NCBI GenBank assembly: GCA_007571275.1 | Contig: RKRS01000050.1 | Location: forward strand, 1-35,731 | DNA length: 35,731 nucleotides | Direction: 5' to 3' | DNA from: Dehalococcoidia bacterium | GTDB taxonomy: Bacteria; Chloroflexota; Dehalococcoidia; Bin125 | In this document: positions 883 to 25,052 of the stretch, piece by piece | Position numbering within the stretch: position 1 is the stretch's first letter | Layout of the letters: each line of letters opens with the position of its first letter | Program-made: the position numbers and the translations under genes | The notes under the pieces: generated by a model | Told to the model about the DNA's origin: nothing | Database searches by the model: none | What the model saw: only the letters and a program-made list of their open reading frames with translations

Positions 883-1821
883 ATGGCACGCAACTTCTTC
901 ACCGTGATGCGATCGAGCGCGCCGAGCAGTACTGCAGAGCGAGGCACGGTCACCGCGCCGCCGCCACCGTCGAACATGAAAGAGGAGGCCGCGGCCGGCG
1001 TCGGCGTACATCTCGACCCCAGTCTGGGCGCGGTGCGGCACGAGATCACCGAAGCAGTCGAGATGGCGCTCGAACTGCGGGACGTCTCGGCGTACTACGG
1101 CACGTTTCAGGCAGTGGACCGGATCACTCTGCCGATTCCCAGGAATCGTGTCACGGCGTTGATCGGCCCGTCCGGCTGCGGTAAGTCCACGCTGCTGCGC
1201 TGTCTCAATCGGCTGAACGACCTCATCCCGGGCGCGCGGATTGAAGGCAACATCGAGTTTGAAGGACGCAACCTGCTGGACCCGAACGTCGACGCCGTCG
1301 ACGTCCGCCGCCGAATCGGGATGGTCTTCCAGAAGCCCAACCCGTTCCCCAAGTCGATCTATGAAAACGTCGCGTTCGGCGCTCGAATCAACGGGTATTC
1401 GGGCGACATGGATCGACTGGTCGAAGATTCCCTGCGTCGGGCTGCGCTCTGGAGTGAAGTCAAGGACGAGTTGAACAAGTCCGGGCTGGCGCTGTCCGGC
1501 GGTCAGCAGCAACGACTGTGTATCGCCCGCGCCATCGCGGTGCAGCCCGAGATCATCCTGATGGATGAGCCGGCCTCGGCGCTTGACCCCGTCGCCACGC
1601 TGAAAATCGAAGACCTGATGCGCGAACTGGCCGAGCACTACACGATCGTCGTGGTGACCCACAACATGCAGCAGGCTGGTCGCGTGTCCGACTACACGGC
1701 GTTCCTGCTGGCCGGTGAGGAGCGGGTCGGGCGACTGGTCGAATTCGGCCCGACACAGGAAATTTTCACGAACCCGCTGGATCAGCGGACGGAAGACTAC
1801 ATTACTGGCAGGTATGGCTAA
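883..1821 (+). CDS. pstB: Phosphate ABC transporter ATP-binding protein PstB with N-terminal extension
   Basis: Walker [51 protein letters not shown]-terminal [10 protein letters not shown]; GGGGGAG SD upstream. Confidence 0.96.
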
Positions 1822-1863
1822 CCTGCTCAGTGATGGGAACAACGAATCCGCCCGGACAGCGAG

Positions 1864-2562
1864 GTGCGTATGTCAACCGTTCGGCTGACGTATTCCGCTG
1901 ATCGGGCAGATGTCCTGGACCGTCTTCGCCTTCAGCAGGCACGGGCTGACCGTTCGATCGTTGACGCGATGCAAGCGCTGCTCCGTCGCGACCTTGTGCT
2001 TGCTCGGCAGGTGTGCGAGGCCGATCACGACGCGAAACAGGTGCGCTACGCGATCGAGGAAGCAGTGACCAGCATCATCGCGCTGCAACAGCCGGTTGCT
2101 GGAGATCTGCGCGAATTGATGTCGATCATCGCGATCACGCTCAACCTCGAGCGGATCGCTGGCCATGCTGAGGGCATCGCTCGCAACGCCATCTTCCTCG
2201 AGGATGACCCGGTCGCTGCGACCGAGCCTGACCTGTGGCGCATGGCTGACGTCGTGCGCGAGATGTTGCAGTCAGCGACACGCTCCTTCCTGGAACGCGA
2301 TCAGCGCCTGGCGCGCTTCACGGCGAAGCGGGACGATGAAGTCGACGAACTGTACGGCGACATTCACGAACGCCTGATCGCCAGGCTGGCCGGCGTCGAG
2401 CGCGGCGCGGAGGAGTTCGACGCCATCACGCATGTACTCTGGTGCTCGCACAATCTCGAGCGCATCGGTGACCGCGCCCTGAACATCTGCGAGCGCACGA
2501 TCTTCCAGGTCACCGGTCGATTTGAGCGCCTGACCGGTCCCGACGACGAGGCGGCGTCTTAA
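1864..2562 (+). CDS. phoU: Phosphate signalling protein PhoU (GTG 1864 or ATG 1870 start)
   Basis: IALQQPVAGDLR, LERIAGHA, DDEVDELY, LERIGDRALNICE repeats; follows pstB. Confidence 0.93.
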   Translation: MRMSTVRLTYSADRADVLDRLRLQQARADRSIVDAMQALLRRDLVLARQVCEADHDAKQVRYAIEEAVTSIIALQQPVAGDLRELMSIIAITLNLERIAGHAEGIARNAIFLEDDPVAATEPDLWRMADVVREMLQSATRSFLERDQRLARFTAKRDDEVDELYGDIHERLIARLAGVERGAEEFDAITHVLWCSHNLERIGDRALNICERTIFQVTGRFERLTGPDDEAAS

Positions 2563-2589
2563 CGCACCCCGAAGCCGACGCATTCGCTC

Positions 2590-2601
2590 TAGCCTTCGCT
2601 C
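2590..2601 (+). promoter_or_regulatory. Candidate -10 element (TAGCCT) 6 nt before ATG; probable leaderless transcript
   Basis: TAGCCT 2590-2595, spacer TCGCTC, ATG 2602; no SD. Confidence 0.55.
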
Positions 2602-3177
2602 ATGGAAGCATTGGTGATCGCCCTGATCCGAGTGGCCGGCTCACTGCCGGTGCTGCGCTGGGCGTTCGTCGGCGGGTTGATCGCCGTCTTCGTCGATCTC
2701 TCTGACCTGTTCCTACGCCAGGCAATCGATCTGGGCGGTCTGCCGAACTACCAGGAGTGGGACAAGTGGGTCGACCAGGTGTATATCTGGTTGTTCTTGG
2801 TGGTCGCGCTGCGCTGGTCGGGCTGGGAGCGGCGGGTTGCACTGGGACTCTTCGGCTGGCGTCTGATCGGCTTCGTCGCGTTCGTGGCTGGGGCCGGACG
2901 CGACATCCTGATCTACTTCCCGCACGTCTTCGAGTTCTGGTTCCTCTTCGTCGCGGCCAGACCGCACTGGCCGTCACGACTACGTCCAGGCTGGGCGCAG
3001 GCCGCGGATGGTACCCCGGCGCCGCTCACGCGGGCTGAGGCGGCGCGTTGGTTACTGTTCCTCGCGGCGCTCAAGATCTTTCATGAGTACACGCTGCATA
3101 CGGGCAAGTGGTTCGACAACTTCTCTGCCTTCGAGGCGGCGGAGGCGATCTGGGACTTCGTCAGCGGGCCGTTCTAG
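2602..3177 (+). CDS. Hypothetical integral membrane protein with a DxxD...DxxxD acidic motif
   Basis: Several hydrophobic helices; DLSD and DKWVD; fills the gap between phoU and the ABC ATPases. Confidence 0.8.
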   Translation: MEALVIALIRVAGSLPVLRWAFVGGLIAVFVDLSDLFLRQAIDLGGLPNYQEWDKWVDQVYIWLFLVVALRWSGWERRVALGLFGWRLIGFVAFVAGAGRDILIYFPHVFEFWFLFVAARPHWPSRLRPGWAQAADGTPAPLTRAEAARWLLFLAALKIFHEYTLHTGKWFDNFSAFEAAEAIWDFVSGPF

Positions 3178-3290
3178 CCTGTTCTGGCGATGTGGCAGGT
3201 TTCGATCAGGAATACCGCATCGACAGGCTCGATCTCGGGGTATCCTGCCCATATTGCGCGTTTGATCTGAGCAGGTTCCTGGAGTAGACA

Positions 3291-4238
3291 ATGACGACTA
3301 GTGCGGCGGTTCCGCCGATTCGTCCCGACGAGATGTTGGCGGAGCAGCATGTGACCTGCCGCGACCTGTTCAAGATCTACAAGATCGCCGACCTCGAAGT
3401 CGTCGCCTTGCGCGGGCTCGACCTGACCGTTGGCCGCGGAGAGGTGCTGGCCATTGTCGGCGCGTCCGGTTCGGGTAAGTCGACCCTGCTCAACGTCCTG
3501 GCCGGCCTCGATGTCCCGTCAGCTGGTCAGGCCTACGTCAATAAAGCGGACCTGCTCGCCCTGACCGAGCAGGAACTGGTTGACTACCGACGCGAGGAAG
3601 TCGGCTTCGTCTGGCAGCAGACCGGTCGCAACCTGATTCCCTATCTCAATGCCCAGCAGAACATTGAGGTGCCAATGATCCTCGCTGGTCGCCCGCGCAA
3701 ACATGCCCGAGAGCGAGCGCTCGAATTGCTCGAAGCTGTCGGATTGATGAACAAACGACGACAGCGTCCCGACCAGCTCTCGGGCGGTGAGCAGCAACGC
3801 GTATCAATCGGCGTGGCGCTGGCCAACGACCCACCCTTGCTCCTGGCCGATGAGCCCACCGGTGAGCTGGACACGCATACCTCCGAAGAGATTTTCCAAC
3901 TGTTCCGCAACCTCTCAAATCAATTCGGACTGACGATCATCATCGTCACGCACGACCCGGCGATCGCATCGCGGGTTGACCGTGTCGTCGCCATTCGCGA
4001 CGGTACGATCGCGACGGAGACGGTGCGTCGCGTCGAAAATGCCGGGACCGAGATCGCTGAAGTGGTCCATGAAGAGTTCGCCGTGGTCGACGGCGCCGGG
4101 CGGCTACAGATTCCCAAGCCGTTGCTCGAACAGGTCGCGCTCGGCCGCAGGGCATACGTCGATTCACGCGACGGGCGGATCGTGATCACGCCGGCGCACG
4201 AGGCCGACGCCGGCGATGAAGAGGCTGAACAACGATGA
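3291..4238 (+). CDS. LolD/MacB-type ABC ATP-binding protein with a C-terminal AbrB-like domain
   Basis: GASGSGKS, LSGGEQQRV, ADEPTGELD, VTHD; tail AVVDGAGRLQIPKPLLEQV...DGRIVITP; GGAG SD. Confidence 0.9.
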   Translation: MTTSAAVPPIRPDEMLAEQHVTCRDLFKIYKIADLEVVALRGLDLTVGRGEVLAIVGASGSGKSTLLNVLAGLDVPSAGQAYVNKADLLALTEQELVDYRREEVGFVWQQTGRNLIPYLNAQQNIEVPMILAGRPRKHARERALELLEAVGLMNKRRQRPDQLSGGEQQRVSIGVALANDPPLLLADEPTGELDTHTSEEIFQLFRNLSNQFGLTIIIVTHDPAIASRVDRVVAIRDGTIATETVRRVENAGTEIAEVVHEEFAVVDGAGRLQIPKPLLEQVALGRRAYVDSRDGRIVITPAHEADAGDEEAEQR

Positions 4239-5332
4239 CATCTCCTCAGGCAACCAACGGCATGACCGCTCTCCGCAATCAGGACCTGGTCGTCGATGTC
4301 CAGGGCGTCTCGCGCAAGTTCGTGGTCGGCGGCGAGGATATCTGGGCCGTCCGTGATGTCTCGCTACAGGTTGCGCGAGGCGAGTTTGTCGCGTTGATTG
4401 GACGCTCTGGTTCGGGCAAAACGACGCTGCTCAATCTGATCGCCGGATTGGATTCCCCGACCTCAGGGCATGTCACGATCGACGGGGAGAACATCACCGA
4501 TTACACCGAGCGTCAGCTGACCCAACTGCGTCGTCACCGTGTCGGATTTGTCTTCCAGTCCTTCGGACTGCTGCCGCTGCTCTCGGCGTACGAGAACGTT
4601 GAGCTGTCGTTGCGAATTGCAGGTGCCGGCATCCGCGAGCGTCGCCGTCGCGCTGAGGAATTGCTTGAGGCGGTCGGACTCGCCGGGCGCGCTCGCCACC
4701 GACCGTACGAACTGTCTGGTGGCGAGCAACAGCGGGTCGCCATCGCTCGGGCGTTGGCCAACTCACCGGCCCTGATTCTGGCCGACGAGCCAACCGGGGA
4801 GTTGGACTCCACGACCGCCGTTTCGATTTTCCGACTGCTACACGACCTGGTCGTCGAGCAGGGCGTCACGATCATCACGACCACACATGACCGCACCGTG
4901 ATGGAACTGGTGCCGCGGGTCGAAGAGATGAGGGATGGTCGGTTGTTGCAGCCCGAAGAGCAGGAATTGTTCCGCTACACGGTCCGCGACGAGCGTTCGC
5001 GCTTCGCTGCCGATCTACCCACCGACATCCAGGATGAGGTCTCGGCCGTGCGATCGCACGCCGCCGATTTCGCGCCGACGGTGGAAGAACGCGTCGCGGC
5101 GGAACGCGCCGCTCATCCGGAGCTAACCGAAGCCCAGGCGCGCCACGTGTTCGGCGCTGATCGCGAAGAGCCTGAGCCGTCTGCGATCGGGTCTGCTGCG
5201 GCAGCGGACGCGACCGACGAAACCTGGCAGCCGCAGATTCCCGATCCGGAGCCGCCCAGCGAAGAAGAAGCGTCGTTTGCTCCTCCCGCTGGTGTTGAGC
5301 GACCGGTCTGGGCGCGACCACGCGACGAGTAA
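4235..5332 (+). CDS. LolD/MacB-type ABC ATP-binding protein with a long acidic C-terminal tail
   Basis: GRSGSGKT, LSGGEQQRVAIARA, ADEPTGELD; ATGA overlap with the previous gene. Confidence 0.9.
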   Translation: MTSPQATNGMTALRNQDLVVDVQGVSRKFVVGGEDIWAVRDVSLQVARGEFVALIGRSGSGKTTLLNLIAGLDSPTSGHVTIDGENITDYTERQLTQLRRHRVGFVFQSFGLLPLLSAYENVELSLRIAGAGIRERRRRAEELLEAVGLAGRARHRPYELSGGEQQRVAIARALANSPALILADEPTGELDSTTAVSIFRLLHDLVVEQGVTIITTTHDRTVMELVPRVEEMRDGRLLQPEEQELFRYTVRDERSRFAADLPTDIQDEVSAVRSHAADFAPTVEERVAAERAAHPELTEAQARHVFGADREEPEPSAIGSAAAADATDETWQPQIPDPEPPSEEEASFAPPAGVERPVWARPRDE

Positions 5333-5335
5333 CGA

Positions 5336-6085
5336 CTAAGGCTCGGTCTCGACCTTGGTCAGAATGAAGCGACGCGGCTGCTGATCCCAGCGAATCAGGC
5401 GGTGTGGCGGATCGATCGCGTACCAGGCGCGGGAGATTTCCACGCCCGGCGTCGCCACGACCTGCCAGACGACCACGTCGCCGTCGGGGCTGCGCAGCGT
5501 GTCCTGCCCGCGCACCGCAACCTGAACGACCTGGCTGCGGCGCTGGACGACGTTCACCGAGCGATAGGTCAGCTCCAGGTCCTGCTCGAACGCCAGCGTG
5601 CGCCAGAGCCAGGCCGACGAGTCATTGTCGAAGGCAAACGCGCCGGCCTCGACGGTTTCTTCAGTGACTTCGCCGTCTTCATCGAGGATCACCTCGGCCG
5701 AAATTTCCGCGTCGGCATTGATGCGGTACGTCGCCTCCGCGGTGAGCGTCTCCTCCGACGACTCCGCGTGTCGCTGGTAGCGAAGCGGTTGCAGCGTGTC
5801 GGCGTCAACCCAGACGCTCACTCGATCCGTTACCGTGCCATCTTCGCTGTCAAGAGTGAACTGCAGCGACAGCAGGTACTCGTCGTCCTGGCGAATGGTT
5901 TCCAGCACGAGCGTCCCCAGCCTGGTGTCGGTCTGGTCGAGCATGTCGTAGTGCAGCCGCTCAAAGTCCGGCCACGAGATCTGCGAGACAGGATTTTCAG
6001 GATCGTTGAAACCAGCCTCGGAGCCACAGGCGACGAAGATTCCGACCATCCCGGCCAGGAACACAGCGAACAACGACCGCGTCAC
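5336..6085 (-). CDS. Lipoprotein, beta-rich, possibly DUF3108-like
   Basis: GTG at 6085 overlaps the upstream TGA; signal peptide MTRSLFAVFLAGMVGIFVA-C lipobox; VWVDADTLQPLRY and AWYAIDPPHRLIRW segments. Confidence 0.75.
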   Translation of the reverse strand: MTRSLFAVFLAGMVGIFVACGSEAGFNDPENPVSQISWPDFERLHYDMLDQTDTRLGTLVLETIRQDDEYLLSLQFTLDSEDGTVTDRVSVWVDADTLQPLRYQRHAESSEETLTAEATYRINADAEISAEVILDEDGEVTEETVEAGAFAFDNDSSAWLWRTLAFEQDLELTYRSVNVVQRRSQVVQVAVRGQDTLRSPDGDVVVWQVVATPGVEISRAWYAIDPPHRLIRWDQQPRRFILTKVETEP

Positions 6086-7458
6086 TGCAGAGTCCCAATG
6101 ACGCCCTGCGCCCGAAGACGCGGCTTCAGGTCGGCCTGCGAACCATTGCCTTTGGTCGAATTGCATGCCCCACAAAGCAGCTGCAGGTTATCGAGATGAT
6201 CGGAACCACCTCTCGATCGTGGAACGATGTGGTCGACTGTGAAATTGCGAAAGGGAAACGCGGAGTTGCAACCGGCGCAGATGCCTTCCTGTTTGCCGAA
6301 GAGGGTGTGCTTGTGCGTGCGGTAGTTCGGCAATGTCCCGAAGTCAGTTCGCTGAGGCACGTCATCGCGGACGATGATGTCCCCGAACATGCCAAGCTCA
6401 TTTCGCATTCGTTGCTGCACGAGTTGAGCGGCGCGTGGAGCGATATCAATGCCAATCCACTGGCGCGGTTCTTCGACTTCCTGGTTGCCTGCTCGGCGTC
6501 TCATTCCCTCAGCGGCAACACAGGCGGTTGCGCAACCTGCATAGGGATCGAGCACCATATCCCCTGGCCTGGAAGAAGCCCGGATGATGCGGTCAAGCAA
6601 TTTCAACGGCTTTTGCGTGGGATATCCGGTTCGTTCCTTCTTGGGAGTGTGCATCATATCCGGAATGTCGTTCCAGACACTGCCAACCAATCGATCCTCG
6701 ACGAGATATCCACCTCGTTCCTCCACGAAGTACTTGATTCGGATATTCCCGGTACGCGTGACATGGATGCGCCCTGCTGCGCTCAACCGCTCGATGCTCT
6801 CGTCCGTGTAGTCGCCACGCGGCGCCGTGCGGAACCAGCGTCCGTCAGCACCCCGTTGATAGCCGTTTGCAGATGCTTCCTGTATCGGGATGAGGCGCTC
6901 TCCGTACACACTGTGATAGGTGTGGCCTCCGCCGTTGCTGTAGAAAAGAATGTCGTCATGGTTGCGGGGAAACTGGTTTGCAACTGCCTTGGCGCCACGT
7001 CCACCGTAATGCCAGATGATCTCGTTGCGATGACGATCTGTGCCGAACACCGCGTCCATTGCGAGTTTGAGATAGTGGCCGGCATTCGGATCGCAATGAA
7101 GGTAGATGCTACCTGCAGGCTTGAGTAACCGCTTCATCTCGATGAGACGTACACTCATGTATATCAGGTAAGCCTGCATGGACTTACTGTGGGTCAGCCC
7201 CGCAGTCTTGATCACCGAGTACAGAGCAGGTTCCCGTTCATCGATTTCTCCATGCCATTCCAGGTCAACATCTTTGAGGGTCCATGTGTCCTGAAATTCG
7301 GCGCCAGCTGCGTCGGAGCCAATTGGAGCTGCATAGTTGTGGTTGGAATTAAAAGGCGGATCGAGATAGATCAGATCAACGCTATCGGAATTCAACCCCC
7401 GCATAATCGGGAGATTGTCACCGGTAAAGAACGTGCGATTTTTCCAGTTGGGATGCAT
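6082..7458 (-). CDS. Beta-class N6A/N4C DNA methyltransferase fused to a C-terminal zinc-binding HNH endonuclease (458 aa)
   Basis: Motif IV YLDPPF precedes motif I LDPYAGCAT; GSIYLHCD, RTGYPTQKP; C-terminal CAGC...VDHIVPRSRGGSDHLDNLQLLCGACNSTKG. ATG 7458 chosen because the ORF-track start lies inside ltaE. Confidence 0.92.
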   Translation of the reverse strand: MHPNWKNRTFFTGDNLPIMRGLNSDSVDLIYLDPPFNSNHNYAAPIGSDAAGAEFQDTWTLKDVDLEWHGEIDEREPALYSVIKTAGLTHSKSMQAYLIYMSVRLIEMKRLLKPAGSIYLHCDPNAGHYLKLAMDAVFGTDRHRNEIIWHYGGRGAKAVANQFPRNHDDILFYSNGGGHTYHSVYGERLIPIQEASANGYQRGADGRWFRTAPRGDYTDESIERLSAAGRIHVTRTGNIRIKYFVEERGGYLVEDRLVGSVWNDIPDMMHTPKKERTGYPTQKPLKLLDRIIRASSRPGDMVLDPYAGCATACVAAEGMRRRAGNQEVEEPRQWIGIDIAPRAAQLVQQRMRNELGMFGDIIVRDDVPQRTDFGTLPNYRTHKHTLFGKQEGICAGCNSAFPFRNFTVDHIVPRSRGGSDHLDNLQLLCGACNSTKGNGSQADLKPRLRAQGVIGTLQ

Positions 7459-7462
7459 GGTG

Positions 7463-8530
7463 TCATCCAGGGCCGATTTCTGCTTCGGCCATGCGACGCA
7501 GGGCTTCGGCGCAGTCCTCACTGGTGACATCAGCATGGGTGACCAGACGGATTTTGGTCCGGTCTGGAGTGGTCACGAGCACGCCGATCCGCTTCAGCTC
7601 AGCCTGTAGCTTCGGCGACGGCGCCGGGTCACTGGATGTGTCGAGCTGCGCGATGATGATGTTCGTCTCCACGCGCTCGGGGTTGACGTCGAAACCGAGC
7701 TCGGCCAGTCCACGTGTGAGCTGTCGCGCGTTGGCGTGATCGTCGTGCAGACGATCTACCATCTGATCGAGGGCGACCAGTCCCGCCGCCGCCAGAATCC
7801 CGGCCTGCCGCATACCGCCGCCGACCAGTTTGCGAGTGCGGCGAGCCTGGGCGATGAACGCCTCGTCGCCACAGATCAGCGAGCCGACCGGCGCTCCGAG
7901 TCCTTTGGAGAGGCAGAAGGTCACGCTGTCAGCCGGCGCGGCGAGTTCGGCCACGCTGTGTCCCGAGGCGACGGCTGCGTTGAAGATGCGCGCCCCATCG
8001 AGGTGCACGCGCAGTCCCAGATCATGCGCGACGCCGGCGATCTCCTGCATCCGCTCAAGCGAAATGACCGTTCCGCCACAGAAGTTGTGGGTGTTCTCGA
8101 GCGCCAGCAGCGTCGTCCGCGGCTGATGCATGTCGTCTGGACGGACGGCGCCCGGGATCAGCTCGGGATCGAACCCGCCGTCCGGCTGGTTCGGCAGTGT
8201 CGTCGCGAGCACGCCGCCCAGTCTCGACACGCCGCCTGCTTCTGAGCGCACGATGTGCGCGCGATCGCCGACCAGTAATTCGTCACCGGCTCTGGTCTGA
8301 GATAGCAGCGACACTAGGTTGGCCATCGTCCCGCTGGATACGTACAACGCCGCCTCTTTGCCAGTGACGGCCGCGGCCTGCTGCTCCAGTTTGATGATCG
8401 TCGGATCTTCGCCGAATACGTCGTCGCCGACCTCTGCTTCGTACATGGCCTGGCGCATTGCCGGCGTCGGCTTGGTCACGGTGTCGGAGCGCAGATCGAT
8501 CAATGGCCGTTCGCTCTGGTTGAGGGTCAC
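7463..8530 (-). CDS. ltaE: Low-specificity L-threonine aldolase (PLP)
   Basis: IDLRSDTVTKPT, GDDVFGEDPT, SGTMANL, LENTHN, HLDGARIFNA, CLSKGLGAPVGS, GGGMRQAG; GTG 8530 overlaps the upstream TGA. Confidence 0.95.
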   Translation of the reverse strand: MTLNQSERPLIDLRSDTVTKPTPAMRQAMYEAEVGDDVFGEDPTIIKLEQQAAAVTGKEAALYVSSGTMANLVSLLSQTRAGDELLVGDRAHIVRSEAGGVSRLGGVLATTLPNQPDGGFDPELIPGAVRPDDMHQPRTTLLALENTHNFCGGTVISLERMQEIAGVAHDLGLRVHLDGARIFNAAVASGHSVAELAAPADSVTFCLSKGLGAPVGSLICGDEAFIAQARRTRKLVGGGMRQAGILAAAGLVALDQMVDRLHDDHANARQLTRGLAELGFDVNPERVETNIIIAQLDTSSDPAPSPKLQAELKRIGVLVTTPDRTKIRLVTHADVTSEDCAEALRRMAEAEIGPG

Positions 8531-8970
8531 GCGGTTGGTCCTTGCCGTTCCCAAATCGTGCGGAATCCCTCGCCGCCGGTAATGGCGGCGAGGGTGACGG
8601 CGCGTTCGCCATCGAGGAGTTGTCGTTGAATGTCCTGGACGTGGTCCGGATCGGCGCCCAGGCTGATCAGTCGCGCCTCGATCTTCTGCCAAATGCCGGA
8701 CTCCTCGAACGCCCTGATCGCGCGTGGCCAAGGGAACGACATAATTCGCTCGGGCAATGGCAATCGTGGGCGGAGCGACTTCAGATGGCGAAAACGCTCT
8801 TCAGCTGAGTTGACGCGGTCAACGAGCTGGATGATCGGCATATCCGGCGGATCGGCGCGGAAGTCCACCAGGAGACGCGGTTCCAGCACTTCGAAGCGCA
8901 CGATCAGCACCGACGCACGGTCGATGACACGTAGAATTTCATCGAGGTCGACGCCGTAGTCGTCGCTCAT
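8527..8970 (-). CDS. Hypothetical protein (147 aa)
   Basis: Globular-looking composition; stop coupled to the ltaE start through GTGA. Confidence 0.78.
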   Translation of the reverse strand: MSDDYGVDLDEILRVIDRASVLIVRFEVLEPRLLVDFRADPPDMPIIQLVDRVNSAEERFRHLKSLRPRLPLPERIMSFPWPRAIRAFEESGIWQKIEARLISLGADPDHVQDIQRQLLDGERAVTLAAITGGEGFRTIWERQGPTA

Positions 8971-11157: not shown

Positions 11158-11318
11158 GCTACACGAGTGGACCGAGCGTGCCGAAGTTACTGACTACCCG
11201 GTCTGCCCTCTCCTGATTGCTCACCGATCAGGCGAAGGGAGTCGCTCTCAGCCACGCGAACCGTCCGCCGCGACGGCGGACCAGATCCTCGCCGACGGCG
11301 GCGAACGAAAGGAACACC

Positions 11319-12704
11319 ATGCTTGAGCTCGCGATCTTTCACAACGGAGCGGTCGACCTCGGCAGCGATGTCGTTAATGGCACTCGAGTCAATTCGGGGA
11401 CACTTGAGGAAACCAGCGAAAGTTTCCAGCGGATCCTGATCAATCAGATCCGACAGGGCGTGCTGGCCGAGGAGCTTGGCTTCAACTATTGGTTCATGAC
11501 CGAACACCACATGCAACCCGAAGGGGTGGAGTTCAGTCCCAACCCGATCGTCGCCGAGACAGCCATCGCCGCGCGGACGAGCCGCATTCGGCTCGGACAG
11601 ATGGCCAACATCCTGCCCTGGCACCACCCGGTGCGCTTGGCCGAGCAAGGCGCCATGCTCGATGTGATCAGCGGCGGCCGACTCGAATTCGGCGTCGGAC
11701 GCGGCTACCAGTCCCGTGAAACTGAAGTGCTGGGCGGCGCGATGGGCGCGACGATCCAGGATCAGGAACGCAACCGCTCGTTCTTCGAGGAGTGTTTCGA
11801 GATCATCACCAAGGCCTGGACCCAGCACTCGTTCAGCCATCACGGTGAGTTCTTCAACCTCCCGCCGAGCTACACCAAGTGGGGCAACCCCTCCACGATC
11901 GCCTACTTCAGCCAAGAGCACGTCGATCGCGATCTGGACAGCGTGCTCGATATTGGCGCGCCGGACATGTACGCCTCCGGCCCGCCCGTCTATGCAACCG
12001 GCACGACGCTGAAGGAGATCAGCGTCTACCCGCACCCGATCCAGAAGCCGCGGCCGCCGATGTGGATGCCCGTCACCAGCCCGCGCTCGATCGAGTGGGC
12101 AGCCTCGCACGGGGTCAACTGCTACACGATTCCCGAGCCCAACTCCCGACTCAAGGCCAACGTCGAGCGGTACTACGAGACCCTGGAACGGACCAAGTGG
12201 CCGGACCGCCTCGATCGGGAAGGGCCCTGGAAGTTTGGCTACGACGCCGACGTCAAGCGCGGATTCACCCCGGCCCGATACGTGCACATCCTCAAGCCGG
12301 GCGATGAAGCGAACGACCTCGAGCGCTACAAGCTGGGCATGGAAGCGGCTTGGCCGTACCTCGGCGCATTCGGCTTTGGCGGCGTGATCACCGACATCGA
12401 CGAGCCGCCGCCGCCGCCCGACCGACCGGTGACTGCCGATCTCTGCATCGACAAGGGTCTCGCCTTCGTTGGTACGGCCGACCAAATCGTCGAGCAGATC
12501 ATGGAGATCAAGGAAACGGTCGGCTACGAGGACTTCATGTTTACGGCCTGGTTCGAAATGGGCGGCTACCTCGGCGAAGAGGTTGAGGAGCAGATGCACA
12601 TGTTTGCCGACCAGTGCATGCCGGCACTCGCCGACGCCTGTGGCGGGCTCGTCATCAACCCCGACGTCGGACCGGCCCTGACCGGACCGACGAACGGCGT
12701 CTGA
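11319..12704 (+). CDS. Luciferase-like (LLM class) flavin-dependent oxidoreductase, 461 aa
   Basis: AEELGFNYWFMTEHH, LPWHHPVRLAEQGAMLDVISGGRLEFGVGRG, PHPIQKPRPPMW; AAAGGA SD before ATG 11319. Confidence 0.93.
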   Translation: MLELAIFHNGAVDLGSDVVNGTRVNSGTLEETSESFQRILINQIRQGVLAEELGFNYWFMTEHHMQPEGVEFSPNPIVAETAIAARTSRIRLGQMANILPWHHPVRLAEQGAMLDVISGGRLEFGVGRGYQSRETEVLGGAMGATIQDQERNRSFFEECFEIITKAWTQHSFSHHGEFFNLPPSYTKWGNPSTIAYFSQEHVDRDLDSVLDIGAPDMYASGPPVYATGTTLKEISVYPHPIQKPRPPMWMPVTSPRSIEWAASHGVNCYTIPEPNSRLKANVERYYETLERTKWPDRLDREGPWKFGYDADVKRGFTPARYVHILKPGDEANDLERYKLGMEAAWPYLGAFGFGGVITDIDEPPPPPDRPVTADLCIDKGLAFVGTADQIVEQIMEIKETVGYEDFMFTAWFEMGGYLGEEVEEQMHMFADQCMPALADACGGLVINPDVGPALTGPTNGV

Positions 12705-12767
12705 CGCGGTCGGTTGGTCTCGTTGTTGGTTGCGCCAAGTTGGGACACCGTTGAAGGAGTTCACCTC

Positions 12768-13604
12768 ATGAGCATCACCCTGCAGGGACTCAAGCTCGGC
12801 CATATGGGCATGGATTACGGATTGCTCGGTTATCCGAACCCGAATGACATGCTCCTGCCGAGCCGTCGCGAAGCGCCGCGGACCTGGTACCGCTGCCCGT
12901 CGTTGGCGTACATCATCAATCACCCAGCCGGACGGATCCTGTTCGATACCGGTATCTCGACGAAGTTTGCGGAAGAGTGGCTGCCCGAATGGCAAGGCAC
13001 GCTTGATCTGACCGAACTCACGGCCGACGACCTGCTCGAGAACGCGCTCAAACGGGTCGGCCTGGGGCCGGATGACTTCAGCCATGTCATCCTCAGTCAC
13101 TGTCACGCCGACCACGCCGGCGGGCTGCGGATATTCGAGGAAGCTGGAGCGCAAATCATCCTGCATGAGGATGAACATCGCTACGCGACCAGCATCTGGT
13201 CAGCCGCGAATTTCTTCATCCGTCAGGACTGGCACTTCCTCTCGCGGCGCAACCCGATCTTGATGTATGGCGATCAGGAGATCATGGAGGATCTGTGGAC
13301 GATCAGTCTGCCTGGTCACACGCCTGGCTCGATGGGAGTGCTGGTGCGTCTGGAGACCACCGGCTGGGCGCTGCTCGCCGGCGACGCCGTCAGTACCCAC
13401 GAGGCGTTCGGGCCGCCAGGCTTGCCGAACTTCGTCAACATCAGCAACGAGGCGTTCATCCAGTCGTGCGCGAAGGTCGAAGCCATCGCCTCGGAGCGCG
13501 ACGCATTCATCTTCCCCGGCCACGACGAGTCGGGTTTGCAGTACTCACAAGGCGACCTGGCGATCAAACCGATCGAATTTCTCCCAGGTCATACATATGA
13601 GTAA
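12768..13604 (+). CDS. Metallo-beta-lactamase-fold hydrolase, N-acyl-homoserine lactonase (AiiA/AttM-like) family
   Basis: ILFDTG, SHCHADHAGG, PGHTPGS, LAGDA, FPGHD; GAAGGAG SD before ATG 12768. Confidence 0.88.
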   Translation: MSITLQGLKLGHMGMDYGLLGYPNPNDMLLPSRREAPRTWYRCPSLAYIINHPAGRILFDTGISTKFAEEWLPEWQGTLDLTELTADDLLENALKRVGLGPDDFSHVILSHCHADHAGGLRIFEEAGAQIILHEDEHRYATSIWSAANFFIRQDWHFLSRRNPILMYGDQEIMEDLWTISLPGHTPGSMGVLVRLETTGWALLAGDAVSTHEAFGPPGLPNFVNISNEAFIQSCAKVEAIASERDAFIFPGHDESGLQYSQGDLAIKPIEFLPGHTYE

Positions 13605-22410: not shown

Positions 22411-23161
22411 GGTCTTCTCCCAAATACACTTCCAGCACCTTGGGATCGCTACGAATCTCGTCAGGACGGCCCTCAGCGATTTTCTGACCGAAGTCCAGCA
22501 CGACCAAGCGGTCACAGATGTTCATCATCATGTTCATGTCGTGGTCGATCACCGTGATGGTCACGCCGCGCTCACGGATGGATTCGATCAGCTGACTCAG
22601 ATCGGCCGTCTCGTTGTCGTTCAGCCCGGCGGCGGGCTCGTCCGCCATCAACAGCTGCGGATGTCCGCCAATAGCGATACCGATACCGAGACGGCGCAGG
22701 TTGCCGAAGCCCAGGTTGGTCGCCTGTTCATGAGCGAACTCGCTCAGCCCAACGAATTCGATGATCTCTTCCGCGCCGTGCAGCCCATCGTATGCCTGAT
22801 CGACCCGAGCTGAGCGTGGCCGGTGCTGGCAAGCGATGCCCACGTTGTCCAGCACTGTGAGGTCCTCGAACGCCATCGCCTGCTGGAAGGTGCGGATGAT
22901 CCCGCGCCCGGCCATTGATTCCGCCGCCTGGCCGGTGATGTCCTCACCCATCCAGGTGACGGAGCCGCCGGTTGGACGATGCACCCCGGCGACGACATTG
23001 AACAGCGTCGTCTTGCCGGAGCCATTGGGTCCGATGATGCCCAAGATTTCGCCGTCGTAGATTTCCAGGTCCACGCCATCGAGCGCATGCACGCCGCCGA
23101 ACCATTTGCGCAGGCCGCGGATCTCGAGAATCGGCTCTCGTTCTTCCATCCGAATGTCCAC
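22391..23161 (-). CDS. livG: Liv-type ABC ATP-binding protein LivG
   Basis: FGGVHAL, GPNGSGKTT, RTFQ, DEPAAGL, DHDM, KVLEVYLG. Confidence 0.93.
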   Translation of the reverse strand: MDIRMEEREPILEIRGLRKWFGGVHALDGVDLEIYDGEILGIIGPNGSGKTTLFNVVAGVHRPTGGSVTWMGEDITGQAAESMAGRGIIRTFQQAMAFEDLTVLDNVGIACQHRPRSARVDQAYDGLHGAEEIIEFVGLSEFAHEQATNLGFGNLRRLGIGIAIGGHPQLLMADEPAAGLNDNETADLSQLIESIRERGVTITVIDHDMNMMMNICDRLVVLDFGQKIAEGRPDEIRSDPKVLEVYLGEDLAAAAD

Positions 23162-23218
23162 TCACGCCCCTCCGACGGCACCCGGCCAACCGCCTCAAAG
23201 TCGAGGCAAGGGTAGGAG

Positions 23219-23269
23219 TTGCGAACGTAATTCTCAAGCGTGATAATCCTGCTAGGTAATCGATTGCCT
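23219..23269 (+). promoter_or_regulatory. Sigma70-like promoter (TTGCGA-17-GATAAT) followed by a 16-bp near-palindrome AGGTAATCGATTGCCT
   Basis: -35 at 23219-23224, -10 at 23242-23247, palindrome at 23254-23269, in the livG/Crp divergent region. Confidence 0.55.
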
Positions 23270-23363
23270 CGTTTGGATCAACCCCAAAGGCCCGAGACCC
23301 ACTCAGCGGCAAGCGAGACCGAGTAGCCGTGCGCACGGGAGCGGCTCTGGGCAGGCATCGACG

Positions 23364-24111
23364 ATGGCGGAGCGACGCAGAATAGTTTGGAACGGCACGT
23401 ACATCAAGCAGGGACTGGATGTGCAGAATCAGGTCCGCGCGAACCTGATTCTGCGTGGGATGCCCTCCGAGACGCTGGCTGAGTTGCTCGACAACGCCGA
23501 ACTGGTCTACTTCGATCGCGGCGACCGGCTCGATCATTGGGTGAGTCGTGGCTACGTGATCTTCCCACTGAGCGGCATCCACGGCGGCCTGCTCGAGACC
23601 GAAGACGGCGAGTGCATTCAACCGGTCTTCGTGGGCTCCGAAGGTGTGATCGGCGGGATGCGCGCCCTGCACCGGATGCCGTTTTTCTTCAGCTTCAAAG
23701 TCCGCTTGCCAGGCGAAGCGGTCGTGCTGCCGGCGGCGATCTTTCGCCAGATCGCTGAGCGAGAGCCGGCCCTGAGAGTGGCGCTCACATATGCCTACGA
23801 CAGCAAGTTTCACCTGTCGGCCATGCACGCCGTGTGCGCTCGTTTCCACCCGCTCAGCGTGCGCTGTTGCGCTTGGCTGTCGTTGATCTACAACGAAACC
23901 GAAGACGATATCGTGCCGATCACGCACGAAGAGTTGGCTGAAGTCGTCGGCGCGACCCGGCCCGCCGTCAGCGCGGCACTTTCCCTGTTTGACCAGGCAA
24001 GGATTGGTCTCCTCGATTCGGCGAGGCGCGCTCCGCCTGCTCGATCCGGAACGGGTCGCGCAACTCGCCTGCTCATGTTGGACGACCGCGGAACCAGTCC
24101 CGGTCGAGTGA
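23364..24111 (+). pseudogene. Crp/Fnr family transcriptional regulator with a +1 frameshift near 23988-24000
   Basis: VGSEGVIG cNMP-type domain, HTH ITHEELAEVVGATRPAVS; the family-like end GLVSSIRRGALRLLDPERVAQLACSCW is in the +1 frame and stops at 24111. Start may be GTG 23421. Confidence 0.85.
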
Positions 24112-24148
24112 GACGCATAGTCGGCGCAGTTACGCCGCCAAATCTCCC

Positions 24149-24187
24149 TCTCCCCTCTGGGGGGAGAAGCCCCCTGCCTACGAGGGG
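24149..24187. repeat. REP-like double hairpin
   Basis: TCTCCCC-TCTGG-GGGGAGA then CCCCT...AGGGG; intergenic once the Crp frame is corrected. Confidence 0.5.
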
Positions 24188-24254
24188 TGGCGCCGGCAGA
24201 GGAGGGCCAGCGACAACCTTTAGCCTCTAACCAGCTGATCGTTCCTGGAGGGAG

Positions 24255-25052
24255 ATGGCGATGCCCAAGACGCTTGAAGTGAGCGGCGCGACCCTGGTCT
24301 ACGACGAGTTTGGCGAAGGTCCCGAGACAATCGTCTTCGTCCATGGGGCGGGCGGGAATCATCTCAGTTGGTGGAATCAGATTCCGCGCTTCAGCGACCG
24401 CTTCCGCTGCGTGACCTATGAGGTGCGTGGTTGGGGGCAGAGTCAGGACATCTCCGGCGAGGGTCGCACAGCGTTTGCCCGCGATCTCGGCGAGTTGATG
24501 GATCAGTTGGACATTGCCCGCGCAGCGCTGGTCGGGCAGTCGATGGGTGGGTTTTCCATCCTGCCCTACGCCGCTCGCCATCCCGAGCGGGTGACCGCGC
24601 TGCTCATGGCCGACACGATGCTGGGCATCGGCGATCAGGAGCTGCTGGACGCGATGCGAGTTGCGACTGCGGCGGCGGCCGAGAACGCGCGGCTCGGCGG
24701 GATGACTCGCATGGTGGGGTCGGCGTACCTGGAGCGATCGCCGGCCGGAGTCTTCCTCTACAACCAGATTCGCGCGCTCAACCCGCCACTCGATCTTGAC
24801 CGCCCACTTTCATTCGGCGTCGAGGATGGAGCGATTCCGCTGGATGAGCTCTCGGCGCTGACCATGCCGATCGTCTTCCTGGCTGGCGCGGAAGATGCGA
24901 TCATTCCCGCCGACGTGATTCGTCGAGCTGCGGAGATGGCGCCAGGCGCGCGCTACGTCGAGATTCCGACCGGCGGACACTCCGTCTATTGGGAATTGCC
25001 GGACGAATTCAACGCCGTCCTGGAAGAGCTGCTGGCCGAGGCGTATGGCTAG
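24255..25052 (+). CDS. Alpha/beta fold hydrolase
   Basis: FVHGAGG, RGWGQS, GQSMGG nucleophile elbow, GAED, GHSVYWE. Confidence 0.92.
   Translation: MAMPKTLEVSGATLVYDEFGEGPETIVFVHGAGGNHLSWWNQIPRFSDRFRCVTYEVRGWGQSQDISGEGRTAFARDLGELMDQLDIARAALVGQSMGGFSILPYAARHPERVTALLMADTMLGIGDQELLDAMRVATAAAAENARLGGMTRMVGSAYLERSPAGVFLYNQIRALNPPLDLDRPLSFGVEDGAIPLDELSALTMPIVFLAGAEDAIIPADVIRRAAEMAPGARYVEIPTGGHSVYWELPDEFNAVLEELLAEAYG

Follow-up and report, generated by a model that had tools for sequence, protein, structure and literature searches.

An in-frame fusion of a beta-class DNA methyltransferase with an HNH nuclease in a Dehalococcoidia genome: a candidate single-chain restriction-modification enzyme of unusual build

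The stretch of Dehalococcoidia DNA analysed here, hereafter the window, comprises 35,731 nucleotides (35.7 kb). It contains three co-oriented genes in succession, namely a threonine-aldolase-like gene, a gene in which a predicted beta-class N6/N4 DNA methyltransferase (MTase) continues in frame into an HNH nuclease, and a DUF3108 gene (Table 1). The open reading frame of the fusion gene occupies 6082..7536 (-) and counts 484 aa from its first ATG, but homologue N-termini (MxPNWxNRT) align at the ATG at 7458, and the start was therefore set there, giving 458 aa. In the 484-aa numbering, the Pfam scan placed N6_N4_Mtase (PF01555, 1.6e-34) at residues 53-374 and both HNH (PF01844, 3.6e-14) and HNH_5 (PF14279, 6.9e-14) at residues 420-464; the gathering scores of PF01555 (120.3 bits versus a cut-off of 26.7) and PF01844 (53.1 versus 21.4) were exceeded. 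The original prediction of a beta-class MTase with an in-frame C-terminal HNH was thus confirmed, its coordinates 6082..7458 being exact.

Table 1. Features of the MTase-HNH locus in the window (residues in 458-aa numbering).
Feature	Position (nt)	Strand	Description
MTase-HNH fusion gene	6082..7458	-	458 aa + stop; TGA at 6082-6084, ATG at 7456-7458
MTase N-lobe	6949..7458	-	residues 1-170; catalytic motif IV DPPF and the bulk of the predicted dimer interface
DPPF (catalytic motif IV)	7351-7362	-	residues 33-36 of 458
Variable central segment, presumed target-recognition domain (TRD)	6664..6948	-	residues ~171-265
MTase C-lobe	6379..6663	-	residues 266-360; TQKP motif, SAM loop DPYAGCAT
Conserved linker	6289..6378	-	residues 361-390
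HNH nuclease domain	6139..6288	-	residues 391-440: C394xxC397, D409-H410, N424, C429xxC432-N433, K436
Insertion (DNA missing from the empty sites of 34 genomes of the genus)	6036..7469		without terminal inverted or direct repeats
Threonine-aldolase-like gene (PF01212)	7463..8731	-	upstream, co-oriented; true start probably internal
DUF3108 gene	5336..6175	-	downstream, co-oriented; listed ORF overlaps the MTase-HNH 3' end by 94 nt

Motif IV precedes the SAM-binding motif I, found as VLDPYAGCAT at residues 302-311 (DPYAGCAT at 304-311), which gives the circularly permuted order of the beta class. Intact HNH motifs and a DPPF ahead of DPYAGCA had been described from the letters alone, and the motif order proved to be as described, with both catalytic sites intact. 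The C-lobe carries an insert specific to the window protein (residues 321-331), and in the homologue alignment the linker residues R364, D366, P368, R370, D372 and L386 are invariant or nearly so. Among the Pfam-scanned ORFs no R, S or helicase gene was found within +/-5 kb or elsewhere in the 35.7-kb window, in keeping with the earlier remark that no restriction or specificity gene lies nearby. Apart from the fusion, no defence genes were seen across the window; the neighbours are transport and metabolic genes and not a defence island.

The AF2 model of the window protein (pLDDT 90.5, pTM 0.87) has the fold of solved beta-class members. Nearest is M.BceJIV, with Z 26.1 and an rmsd of 2.9 A over 243 aligned residues, then CcrM (Z 25.5) and EcoP15I Mod (Z 24.0); the last gives the longest alignment, at 303 residues, and is also the top Foldseek match (E 3.5e-17, TMq 0.52). 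From DPPF, N6-adenine is the probable modified base, an assignment that is tentative because N4-cytosine MTases score nearly as high as N6-adenine enzymes (8s9m Z 23.6, M.PvuII Z 21.2). Homodimer prediction scored 0.76, a mark that 20 of 30 solved one-chain pairs attain, as against 1 of 23 solved single-chain proteins, and the best of three controls scored 0.00. At least 92% of contacts agreed between runs, with a partner pLDDT of at least 78. The predicted interface involves residues 77-194, 257-263 and 294, with no named interface residue in the HNH domain. This result may reflect only likeness to solved beta-class MTase dimers.

PF01555 and PF01844 occur together in all 120 best homologues. 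H410, N424, N433 and the four zinc cysteines (C394, C397, C429, C432) are kept in every one of them and D409 in 119; within DPPF, the D and both P are kept in 120/120 and the F in 119/120. The loss of HNH catalytic residues among these homologues, which the original prediction had named as counting against it, was therefore not seen. A query restricted to the junction (residues 266-458) retrieved 303 clusters at 50% identity (E<=1e-30), and by a hand count the match runs without a break through the C-lobe of the MTase and on to the HNH in 130 of the 150 clusters listed. The family is very large and not peculiar to the window. A syntenic orthologue in another genome of the genus is also 458 aa long, gap-free and 86-87% identical. 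Compared with it, dN/dS is 0.048 overall, 0.042 in the HNH, 0.034 in the linker and about 0.05 in every domain, a rough ratio given that dS is saturated at 1.66. Both the MTase and the HNH domain are under strong purifying selection. The junction and both gene ends are spanned by contigs from public sequencing runs, for example by pieces 5847-7180 and 7154-8023 of one run (X1) and 5944-6155 and 7269-7928 of another (X2); the four runs compared all belong to one study, and the best-matching one may be the source sample of the window. Runs containing this stretch are labelled sponge metagenome, and no RNA run was among those listed.

Conservation is uneven along the protein, the nuclease being its most conserved part and the central TRD its most variable. 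Mean identity to the window residue is 0.12-0.42 across the central segment versus 0.64-0.82 in most of the conserved blocks. Among homologues, core identity (0.56-0.90) and TRD identity (0.02-0.80) are uncorrelated (r=-0.06), and in 46 of 119 the TRD is less than 20% identical despite a core identity of about 65%. Central TRDs are swapped among family members. This decoupling fits a single swappable specificity module serving a generic nuclease, and a conserved nuclease beside a variable TRD is the pattern expected if one such recognition module steers both activities. A count of paralogues and of their TRD diversity had been proposed as a check, and it gave up to 24 matching places per genus genome, with swapped TRDs; the window's own genome holds several of these genes. 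The genomes of the genus measure 2.5-3.7 Mb.

The nuclease is exchanged as well. A sister gene in the window's genome (C3) encodes the same type of MTase fused to Mrr_cat (PF04471), a nuclease with a different fold, and another (C128), cut by a contig end and judged from its C-terminal sequence only, is probably an Mrr_cat fusion too; the HNH/Mrr_cat exchange is nuclease-module swapping of the kind known from restriction enzymes. HNH-less derivatives also occur, namely a 311-aa protein in the window's genome (C20) and loci L019-L021, which match only to residue ~351-362, so methylation alone can be kept. The family is mobile. Members travel as IS1595 cargo in 3 of 10 distant loci (L014, L017, L024), where the transposase adjoins, and the element in G002 is a 3.26-kb unit with 35-nt inverted repeats (IRs), a PF12762 transposase, a P63C gene and an MTase-HNH gene, present in three copies that are 99.9-100% identical. 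In a further cluster (L051) a GmrSD gene stands between two MTase-HNH genes.

At the window locus the insertion measures about 1.4 kb. In 34 of 36 other genus genomes the aldolase-like and DUF3108 genes are separated by a gap of only 61-506 bp, the empty site, and one of the 36 shares the same insertion; such sporadic presence at one conserved site, with empty sites intact in relatives, is a feature of free-standing homing endonuclease genes. A second wedge of this kind is an MTase-HNH gene behind purB, at a distance of 6-26 nt, in 4 genomes of the genus; in about 30 others purB stands by itself. In the window the TGA stop of the aldolase-like gene lies 4 nt before the MTase-HNH ATG, and in the orthologue the gene overlaps its upstream neighbour by 1 nt. 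Because of this 4-nt spacing the gene is probably transcribed with the upstream housekeeping operon. Promoter-like and terminator-like hits at the gene were at chance-level counts, with no evident promoter of its own, and a terminator-like hairpin over the stop codon (6104-6079) was not above expectation. GC content is 55.5% and GC3 62%, versus 64-65% and 77-81% in the flanking genes, and it is on these lower values that the gene is judged to be of foreign origin. The Pfam scan of the window's ORFs showed no transposase, the locus has neither bracketing repeats nor an IR match with <=3 mismatches, and the G002 transposase and P63C protein had no match in the window's 88%-complete genome (tblastn, E<=1e-5). 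The gene was thus acquired as a single-gene insertion into a housekeeping operon. The lineages of its two carriers are now 78-79% identical in DNA.

No published description of a beta-MTase–HNH fusion, and no report of activity of any family member, was found in a search of the open full-text literature. Passages of PMC12707154, PMC6471742, PMC11754643, PMC10305163 and PMC7641849 do not describe it. The fused form was absent from the matches listed for phages (15 of 121 records) and plasmids (20 of 2,019), which cover the MTase part only, to residue ~351-411, at 27.6-43% identity. By sequence, no fused structure is present in the PDB, where MTases and HNH proteins match separately; PHROGs likewise assigns the two parts to separate families and has no fused one, and NCBIfam holds no family-level model for the fusion. 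A PADLOC search, also proposed with the original prediction, did match MTase models, but only the generic MTase_II and MTase_III among the best 25 of 83 families.

We lean, with confidence slightly above even, towards the view that the window gene encodes a single-chain restriction-modification (RM) enzyme of unusual build that is described in no paper found. With the same narrow preference we picture it as a beta-class MTase resembling Type III Mod, with an exchangeable internal TRD and a C-terminal HNH of the Cas9/IscB/McrA type. The protein would form a symmetric dimer through its MTase lobes, as solved beta-class MTases do, and the TRD would read a short DNA motif. The MTase would keep this motif methylated on resident DNA, and the two tethered HNH domains would nick or cut near unmethylated motifs of incoming DNA. 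We infer each of these enzymatic steps as well as the defence role. The link to defence is circumstantial, consisting of the GmrSD cluster and the transposon-cargo relatives, whereas the window copy lies among metabolic genes.

The RM reading is favoured by the intactness of both domains, the retention of the HNH and DPPF residues and the purifying selection on both domains, together with the decoupling of TRD from core identity, the predicted fold, the dimer prediction, the Mrr_cat sister fusions, the GmrSD and IS1595 neighbours and the foreign GC. Against it count the merely generic PADLOC models and the missing NCBIfam family model, the position of the window copy outside a defence island and the retention of HNH-less derivatives. 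Furthermore, HNH domains on their own often do no more than nick, which also weighs against this reading, and a protein that relies on a single TRD for both reactions must somehow favour methylation on self DNA. Finally, a selfish role in addiction or homing would lead one to expect selection on the HNH just as much.

That the gene is primarily selfish, a one-gene addiction or homing cassette whose defence benefit is secondary, we hold to be unlikely; the original prediction had also allowed that the HNH might help the gene to spread. Here the HNH would cut unmethylated chromosomes that lack the gene, and either segregant death or a repair event copying the gene in would follow; the likelihood we give to this mechanism is similarly low. 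The insertion is a clean single ORF with neither repeats nor transposase, starting 4 nt past a stop in the window and with a 1-nt overlap in the orthologue, and the purB wedge, the carriage by active IS1595 elements (with the near-identical G002 copies) and the many matching places per genome point in the same direction. Insertion of RM units at start or stop sites and into operon-like structures is also reported by Furuta et al. (2010; PMC2853133), which supports this reading. However, the window copy has been kept in place under purifying selection across two diverged lineages, beyond what a purely parasitic gene would need, the four runs compared contained no empty allele joint (a weak test, on contigs only), and the short spacing may be ordinary for a compact genome. 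The selfish reading is moreover compatible with the RM reading.

Rather improbable, in our opinion, is a resident, orphan-like methyltransferase whose HNH serves in a non-restriction role, such as strand nicking during repair or recombination, or that of a simple zinc-bound clamp on DNA. The operonic position among housekeeping genes without an evident promoter, the vertical retention and the existence of MTase-only relatives would suit it, but a mere clamp would not need H410, N424 and N433, which are invariant in 120/120, and conflict genes are marked by just the patchy distribution, TRD swapping, nuclease-fold swap (HNH/Mrr_cat) and transposon carriage seen here. A more far-reaching proposal, which we consider quite doubtful, is that beta-MTase-HNH genes are a new kind of autonomous, promoterless, ORF-only homing RM cassette. 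Such a cassette would settle a few bases behind an expressed host gene's stop codon, and methylation would protect the carrier chromosome; the tethered HNH would break unmethylated cassette-free alleles, recombinational repair would copy the cassette in, and TRD swaps would yield new homing and defence specificities. If true, this could account for the numerous copies that a 2.5-3.7 Mb genome of the genus carries. As for an artefact, the chance that the fusion is a misassembly, which the original prediction had itself named as a danger, or a frameshift-joined pseudogene of two genes is negligible: its only support is the prior possibility given by a metagenome-type assembly with 287 contigs, and as far as sequence data go it is refuted by the identical architecture in 120/120 homologues, the 303 junction-spanning clusters, the gap-free orthologue and the contigs of several runs that bridge the junction.

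If the RM reading is correct and the enzyme is active as proposed, a complete RM system would be contained in one gene of about 410-480 aa, and we know of no smaller kind. Its build differs from that of the classical single-chain enzymes. With swappable recognition and a generic nuclease, a few characterised members could give compact sequence-specific methylase-nickases or cutters, and the large number of DNA methyltransferase genes that burdens the genus could be due in part to this family. The window itself offers a clean natural experiment, in which a single ORF was dropped into a housekeeping operon and then kept under purifying selection in two diverged lineages.

Single-chain RM enzymes are known as Types IIC, IIG and IIL, including MmeI, BpuSI, Eco57I and TstI, and the classical IIG/IIL build consists of an N-terminal PD-(D/E)xK nuclease, a gamma-class MTase and a C-terminal TRD in about 900-1100 aa. 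Like Type IIC/IIG enzymes, the window protein has nuclease and methyltransferase domains in one polypeptide, and as in Types IIC/IIG/IIL one recognition module would serve both activities, with specificity changing by module swap. In contrast to the classical IIG/IIL build, it has 458 aa, with a beta-class order, internal TRD and C-terminal HNH; the departure from Type IIG pointed out in the original prediction therefore stands. With Type III Mod proteins (EcoP15I 4zcf, H. pylori 6k0w, Mbo45V 7dsu) it shares the beta-class fold and a TRD between two lobes, the PADLOC MTase_III models reach 5.3e-27, and a dimer is predicted. However, unlike in Type III RM, no adjacent res gene (SF2 helicase plus nuclease) is present among the scanned ORFs of the window and a small HNH is fused instead, which leaves the protein without ATP-driven communication between sites.

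Among dimeric beta-class N6-adenine MTases, M.BceJIV (8urk/9c3s), CcrM (6pbd), M.MboIIA (1g60) and M.RsrI (1eg2) resemble it at Z 24.6-26.1 and 24-28% identity, and the DPP[YF] and TQKP/DPF-G-G-type motifs align, but these four have no nuclease domain. IS1595-family transporter IS reportedly carry passenger genes; only relatives of the window gene (G002, L014, L017, L024) are such passengers, whereas the window copy has neither a transposase nor a matching IR. Finally, the HNH shares the motif CxxC...DH...N...CxxCN with those of Cas9, IscB, McrA and group II intron maturases, matching IscB (1.4e-11) and Cas9d (2.5e-10) in NCBIfam and a Cas9 (8d2k), a maturase (6me0) and Gmet_0936 (4h9d) among PDB sequences. 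Unlike in Cas9, IscB and McrA, it is a C-terminal appendage of about 50 residues on a methyltransferase, with no RNA guide and no modification-reading domain.

The window gene encodes a single protein in which a methyltransferase (MTase) is fused to an HNH nuclease. The respective ORF (6082..7536, minus strand) comprises 484 open codons, and since homologues begin at the ATG at 7458 the start was set there, giving a product of 458 aa and exactly the span of the original prediction. Pfam analysis revealed PF01555 (N6_N4_Mtase, 1.6e-34) followed by PF01844 (HNH, 3.6e-14) and PF14279 (6.9e-14), and by its sequence the protein genuinely belongs to both PF01555 and PF01844. DPPF (residues 33-36) lies N-terminal of the SAM loop DPYAGCAT (304-311), the order typical of the beta class, and the HNH domain has CxxC, DH, N and CxxCN. 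The beta-class MTase continuing in frame into an intact HNH domain, as originally predicted together with its Pfam pair, was thus recovered. Regarding NCBIfam, the MTase part matched generic adenine-MTase models only, and the C-terminus matched the HNH of IscB (1.4e-11) and of Cas9d (2.5e-10). The best 25 of 83 PADLOC matches included only the generic MTase_II and MTase_III models.

An AlphaFold2 model from an 84-row alignment (pLDDT 90.5, pTM 0.87) was found by Foldseek to be closest to EcoP15I Mod (E 3.5e-17, TMq 0.52), with CcrM second and an H. pylori Mod third. VIA-align Z scores were 26.1 for M.BceJIV, 25.5 for CcrM, 24.8 for M.MboIIA, 24.7 for M.RsrI and 24.0 for EcoP15I Mod, the last giving the longest alignment (303 residues). 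The predicted fold is Mod-like and its scores are compatible with both N6-adenine and N4-cytosine, as N4-cytosine enzymes score close behind (8s9m, 23.6; M.PvuII, 21.2). DPPF would favour adenine. A homodimer was also predicted (0.76; best control 0.00). Among proteins solved as one-chain pairs, 20 of 30 attain this score, as does one of 23 solved as single chains. At least 92% of contacts agreed between runs, partner pLDDT was at least 78, and the predicted interface maps to the MTase lobes and to the margins of the presumed target-recognition domain (TRD), with 0 named interface residues in HNH. As beta-class MTase dimers have been solved, this pass may reflect likeness to them only.

The fusion is widely conserved. 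Both Pfam domains were present in all 120 best matches from a search of 5.8 billion proteins (50-87% identity, 400-497 aa), named 'DNA methyltransferase' or 'hypothetical' where the source supplies a name. In the alignment of 120 homologues, C394, C397, H410, N424, C429, C432, N433 and K436 were invariant, D409 was found in 119 and DPPF in 119-120, and the HNH block was among the most conserved parts. A loss or decay of HNH residues in homologues, named in the original prediction as counter-evidence, is contradicted by the invariant catalytic and zinc residues of these best 120. A query spanning the MTase/HNH boundary (residues 266-458; clusters at 50% identity, E<=1e-30) returned 303 clusters, and of the 150 listed, 130 by manual count align unbroken from the MTase C-lobe through HNH. 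ESM Atlas includes four or more clusters, of 56-87 members each, with the same two families, from Pseudomonadota, Poribacteria and Chloroflexota. The window gene is therefore one member of a very large family, and the window itself is not special. No description of this family was found in the open full-text literature searched, and REBASE curators may well have such genes on record as putative. The domain junction and both gene ends are also spanned by contigs from four public DNA runs of a single study, labelled sponge metagenome, the best-matching of which may be the source sample. Depth in the aligned runs rises to 23-62 in bin 6554-6667, and loose-ended foreign contigs align at 6607-6639 and 7343-7374, the DNA of the conserved TQKP and DPPF motifs; therefore many other genes of the same MTase type occur in the same samples.

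Concerning the window locus, positions 5336-8600 (3,265 bases) were compared as DNA with 36 other genomes of the genus. In 34 of these, only 61-506 bp (<=255 bp in 33) separate the DUF3108 piece (query 1-~700) from the aldolase piece (query 2135-3265), leaving no space for a 1.37-kb gene. One genome (G016) had no match to the flanks, and only G048 had a filled site, with all 3,265 bases matched at 78% identity (L039, identical to genome_contigs locus L009 and counted once). The window gene is a single-gene insertion and is foreign by composition (GC 55.5%, GC3 62%; flanks 64-65% and 77-81%). When filled and empty sites were aligned, the foreign DNA mapped to about 6036-7469. Homology on the aldolase side stops within the final two or three codons, and the C-terminus before the stop reads EIGPG (window), EIGPEAR (orthologue) or is EIGPRxS-like (empty sites). 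The MTase ATG lies 4 nt after the aldolase TGA in the window and overlaps the stop (TAATG) in the orthologue; CGCG directly follows the MTase TGA, and likewise the aldolase TGA in empty sites. No transposase, IS1595 repeat of the G002 unit described below, or bracketing direct or inverted repeats were found at the insert. Since the ATG follows the aldolase stop and promoter-like and terminator-like matches around the gene are no more than chance level, the gene is probably transcribed by read-through from the aldolase operon. As listed, the DUF3108 ORF overlaps the MTase-HNH 3' end by 94 nt, so the insertion must have replaced its original start region. Its signal-peptide-like segment (..SLFAVFLAGMVGIFVAC..) begins directly after the MTase stop. 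RM (restriction-modification) genes are reported to insert at stop codons and into operon-like structures (Furuta et al., 2010; PMC2853133), a pattern that the window insertion fits.

The window's particular value is a cleanly dated single-ORF insertion, long retained. Window protein and orthologue share 86% (gapless count) to 87% (searches) of amino acids with no gaps. By Nei-Gojobori, dN/dS was 0.048 for the whole gene, 0.027 for the MTase N-lobe, 0.071 for the TRD, 0.068 for the C-lobe, 0.034 for the linker and 0.042 for HNH, rough values given saturated dS (1.2-2.2). Both predicted activities have plainly been maintained since the two lineages split.

The neighbours encode two ABC ATPases, a DUF3108 protein, a threonine-aldolase-like PLP enzyme, a NIPSNAP protein, and MobA-like and YqeC proteins, and genes in the remainder of the window are for transporters, hydrolases, CoA-transferases and the like. 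The 35.7 kb otherwise contained no gene for restriction, specificity, a helicase or known defence, in agreement with the earlier claim that no partner restriction or specificity gene lies nearby. Two long ORFs without a Pfam match at E<=1e-5 (see table) may encode proteins of unknown family, or may lie on the wrong strand of real genes.

Coordinates of the window features, paralogues in the same genome (G000) and relatives
Feature	Contig or locus	Position	Strand
MTase-HNH gene	window	6082..7458	-
DUF3108 ORF	window	5336-6175	-
ORF, 663 aa	window	11190-13178	-
ORF, 545 aa	window	22947-24581	-
Full MTase-HNH gene	G000 C241 (among L002-L006)	405-1814	
Full MTase-HNH gene	G000 C248 (among L002-L006)	182-1528	
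MTase gene, tail cut	G000 C128 (L004)	3-1403 (3-1340 as L004)	-
MTase-Mrr_cat gene	G000 C3 (L005)	57-1505 (57-1496 as L005)	-
N-terminal fragment	G000 C261 (among L002-L006)	3-251	
3.26-kb unit	G002:C3 (L048)	1138-4400	
Split recombinase region	L014	4993-9875	
Split CoA-transferase region	L012	5237-10372	
Tandem copies after purB	G047:C1 (L052)	1480-4250	

The window's own assembly (2.47 Mb, 287 contigs, 88% complete) carries two further full MTase-HNH genes, a contig-edge fragment 74% identical, and one MTase-only gene (C20). In the C3 gene the same MTase type has Mrr_cat (PF04471, 1.3e-07), a different fold, replacing HNH; the C128 gene, whose tail (..GADSGVDG..IVQVK) is cut by the contig end, probably carries Mrr_cat as well, judging by that tail. 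Each of these two begins 34-46 nt past a co-oriented metabolic gene. For five of the six paralogues, a contig end cuts the gene or is no more than about 410 nt away. In each, the 5' flank runs into housekeeping genes and the 3' end faces the break, which suggests repeats, tandem copies or strain variation downstream. Of 24 genus genomes sampled, 21 gave matches at E<=1e-20, one 3.3-Mb genome having as many as 24 matching places, and many copies share 55-68% identity over ~1-185 and ~217-455 with no match between. In the 120-protein alignment, identity to the window protein was 0.56-0.90 in the core and 0.02-0.80 in the TRD (below 20% in 46 of 119 homologues, at least 40% in 32). The two are uncorrelated (r=-0.06), indicating that the recognition segment is exchanged between otherwise similar genes; paralogue number and TRD diversity, put forward earlier as a check, are both evident.

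Relatives are found in mobile settings. G002 contains a unit in three copies 99.9-100% identical (L048, L049, L050), with 35-nt terminal inverted repeats, an IS1595 transposase (PF12762, 4.8e-41), a P63C-domain gene (product matching phrog_2384, 1.6e-100) and an MTase-HNH gene. Among ten loci from other phyla, an IS1595 transposase adjoins the gene in three (L014, L017, L024) and TnpB in one (L013). At L014, MTase-HNH and transposase lie between an N-terminal Resolvase part and the remaining Resolvase/Recombinase part, which look like one split serine-recombinase gene. At L012 and L016 the gene is directly downstream of a co-oriented housekeeping gene; at L012, MTase-HNH and two ORFs without informative Pfam matches split CoA-transferase A/B subunit genes, which looks like insertion into an operon. 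L051 is a cluster of MTase-HNH, GmrSD and MTase-HNH, and L022 and L023 are apparently frameshifted. Another wedge is situated 6-26 nt past purB, with two copies in tandem in G047 and a single copy in each of G045, G048 and G050; purB stands without it in about 30 genus genomes. In G047 the 16-nt spacer and first ~30 nt of the second gene recur past its stop with the ATG altered, which resembles a trace left by unequal crossing-over or by a decayed third copy.

The most economical account, to which we give somewhat better than even credence, is that the window protein may be a single-chain RM enzyme. At the motif read by the TRD, resident DNA would be methylated by a Mod-like dimer, and DNA bearing this motif in unmethylated form would be nicked or cut by the pair of tethered, generic HNH domains. 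This account is favoured because the two active sites are intact and both are under selection, the TRD is exchanged as a module, sister genes swap nuclease fold (HNH or Mrr_cat), distribution is patchy and composition foreign, relatives are transposon cargo, and one clusters with GmrSD, a Type IV enzyme. Counted against it are a setting that is not a defence island and the existence of derivatives without HNH. Also counting against it, all comparative evidence fits a selfish addiction or homing role equally well; a primarily selfish element we consider rather unlikely. A non-restriction role for the HNH domain appears less probable still. An artefactual fusion, raised earlier as misassembly, is excluded as far as sequence can tell by its conservation in 120/120 homologues and by the contigs bridging the junction. 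The little probability remaining goes to some other explanation.

Classical Type IIG enzymes join a gamma-class MTase to an N-terminal PD-(D/E)xK nuclease. With Type IIC/IIG the window protein shares the single-chain RM plan proposed from its sequence; however, as was originally pointed out, its architecture departs from the classical build, being beta-class, with an internal TRD and a C-terminal HNH in place of the N-terminal PD-(D/E)xK. Compared with Type III systems it resembles Mod, but without Res. The family probably represents a single-chain RM of variant build.
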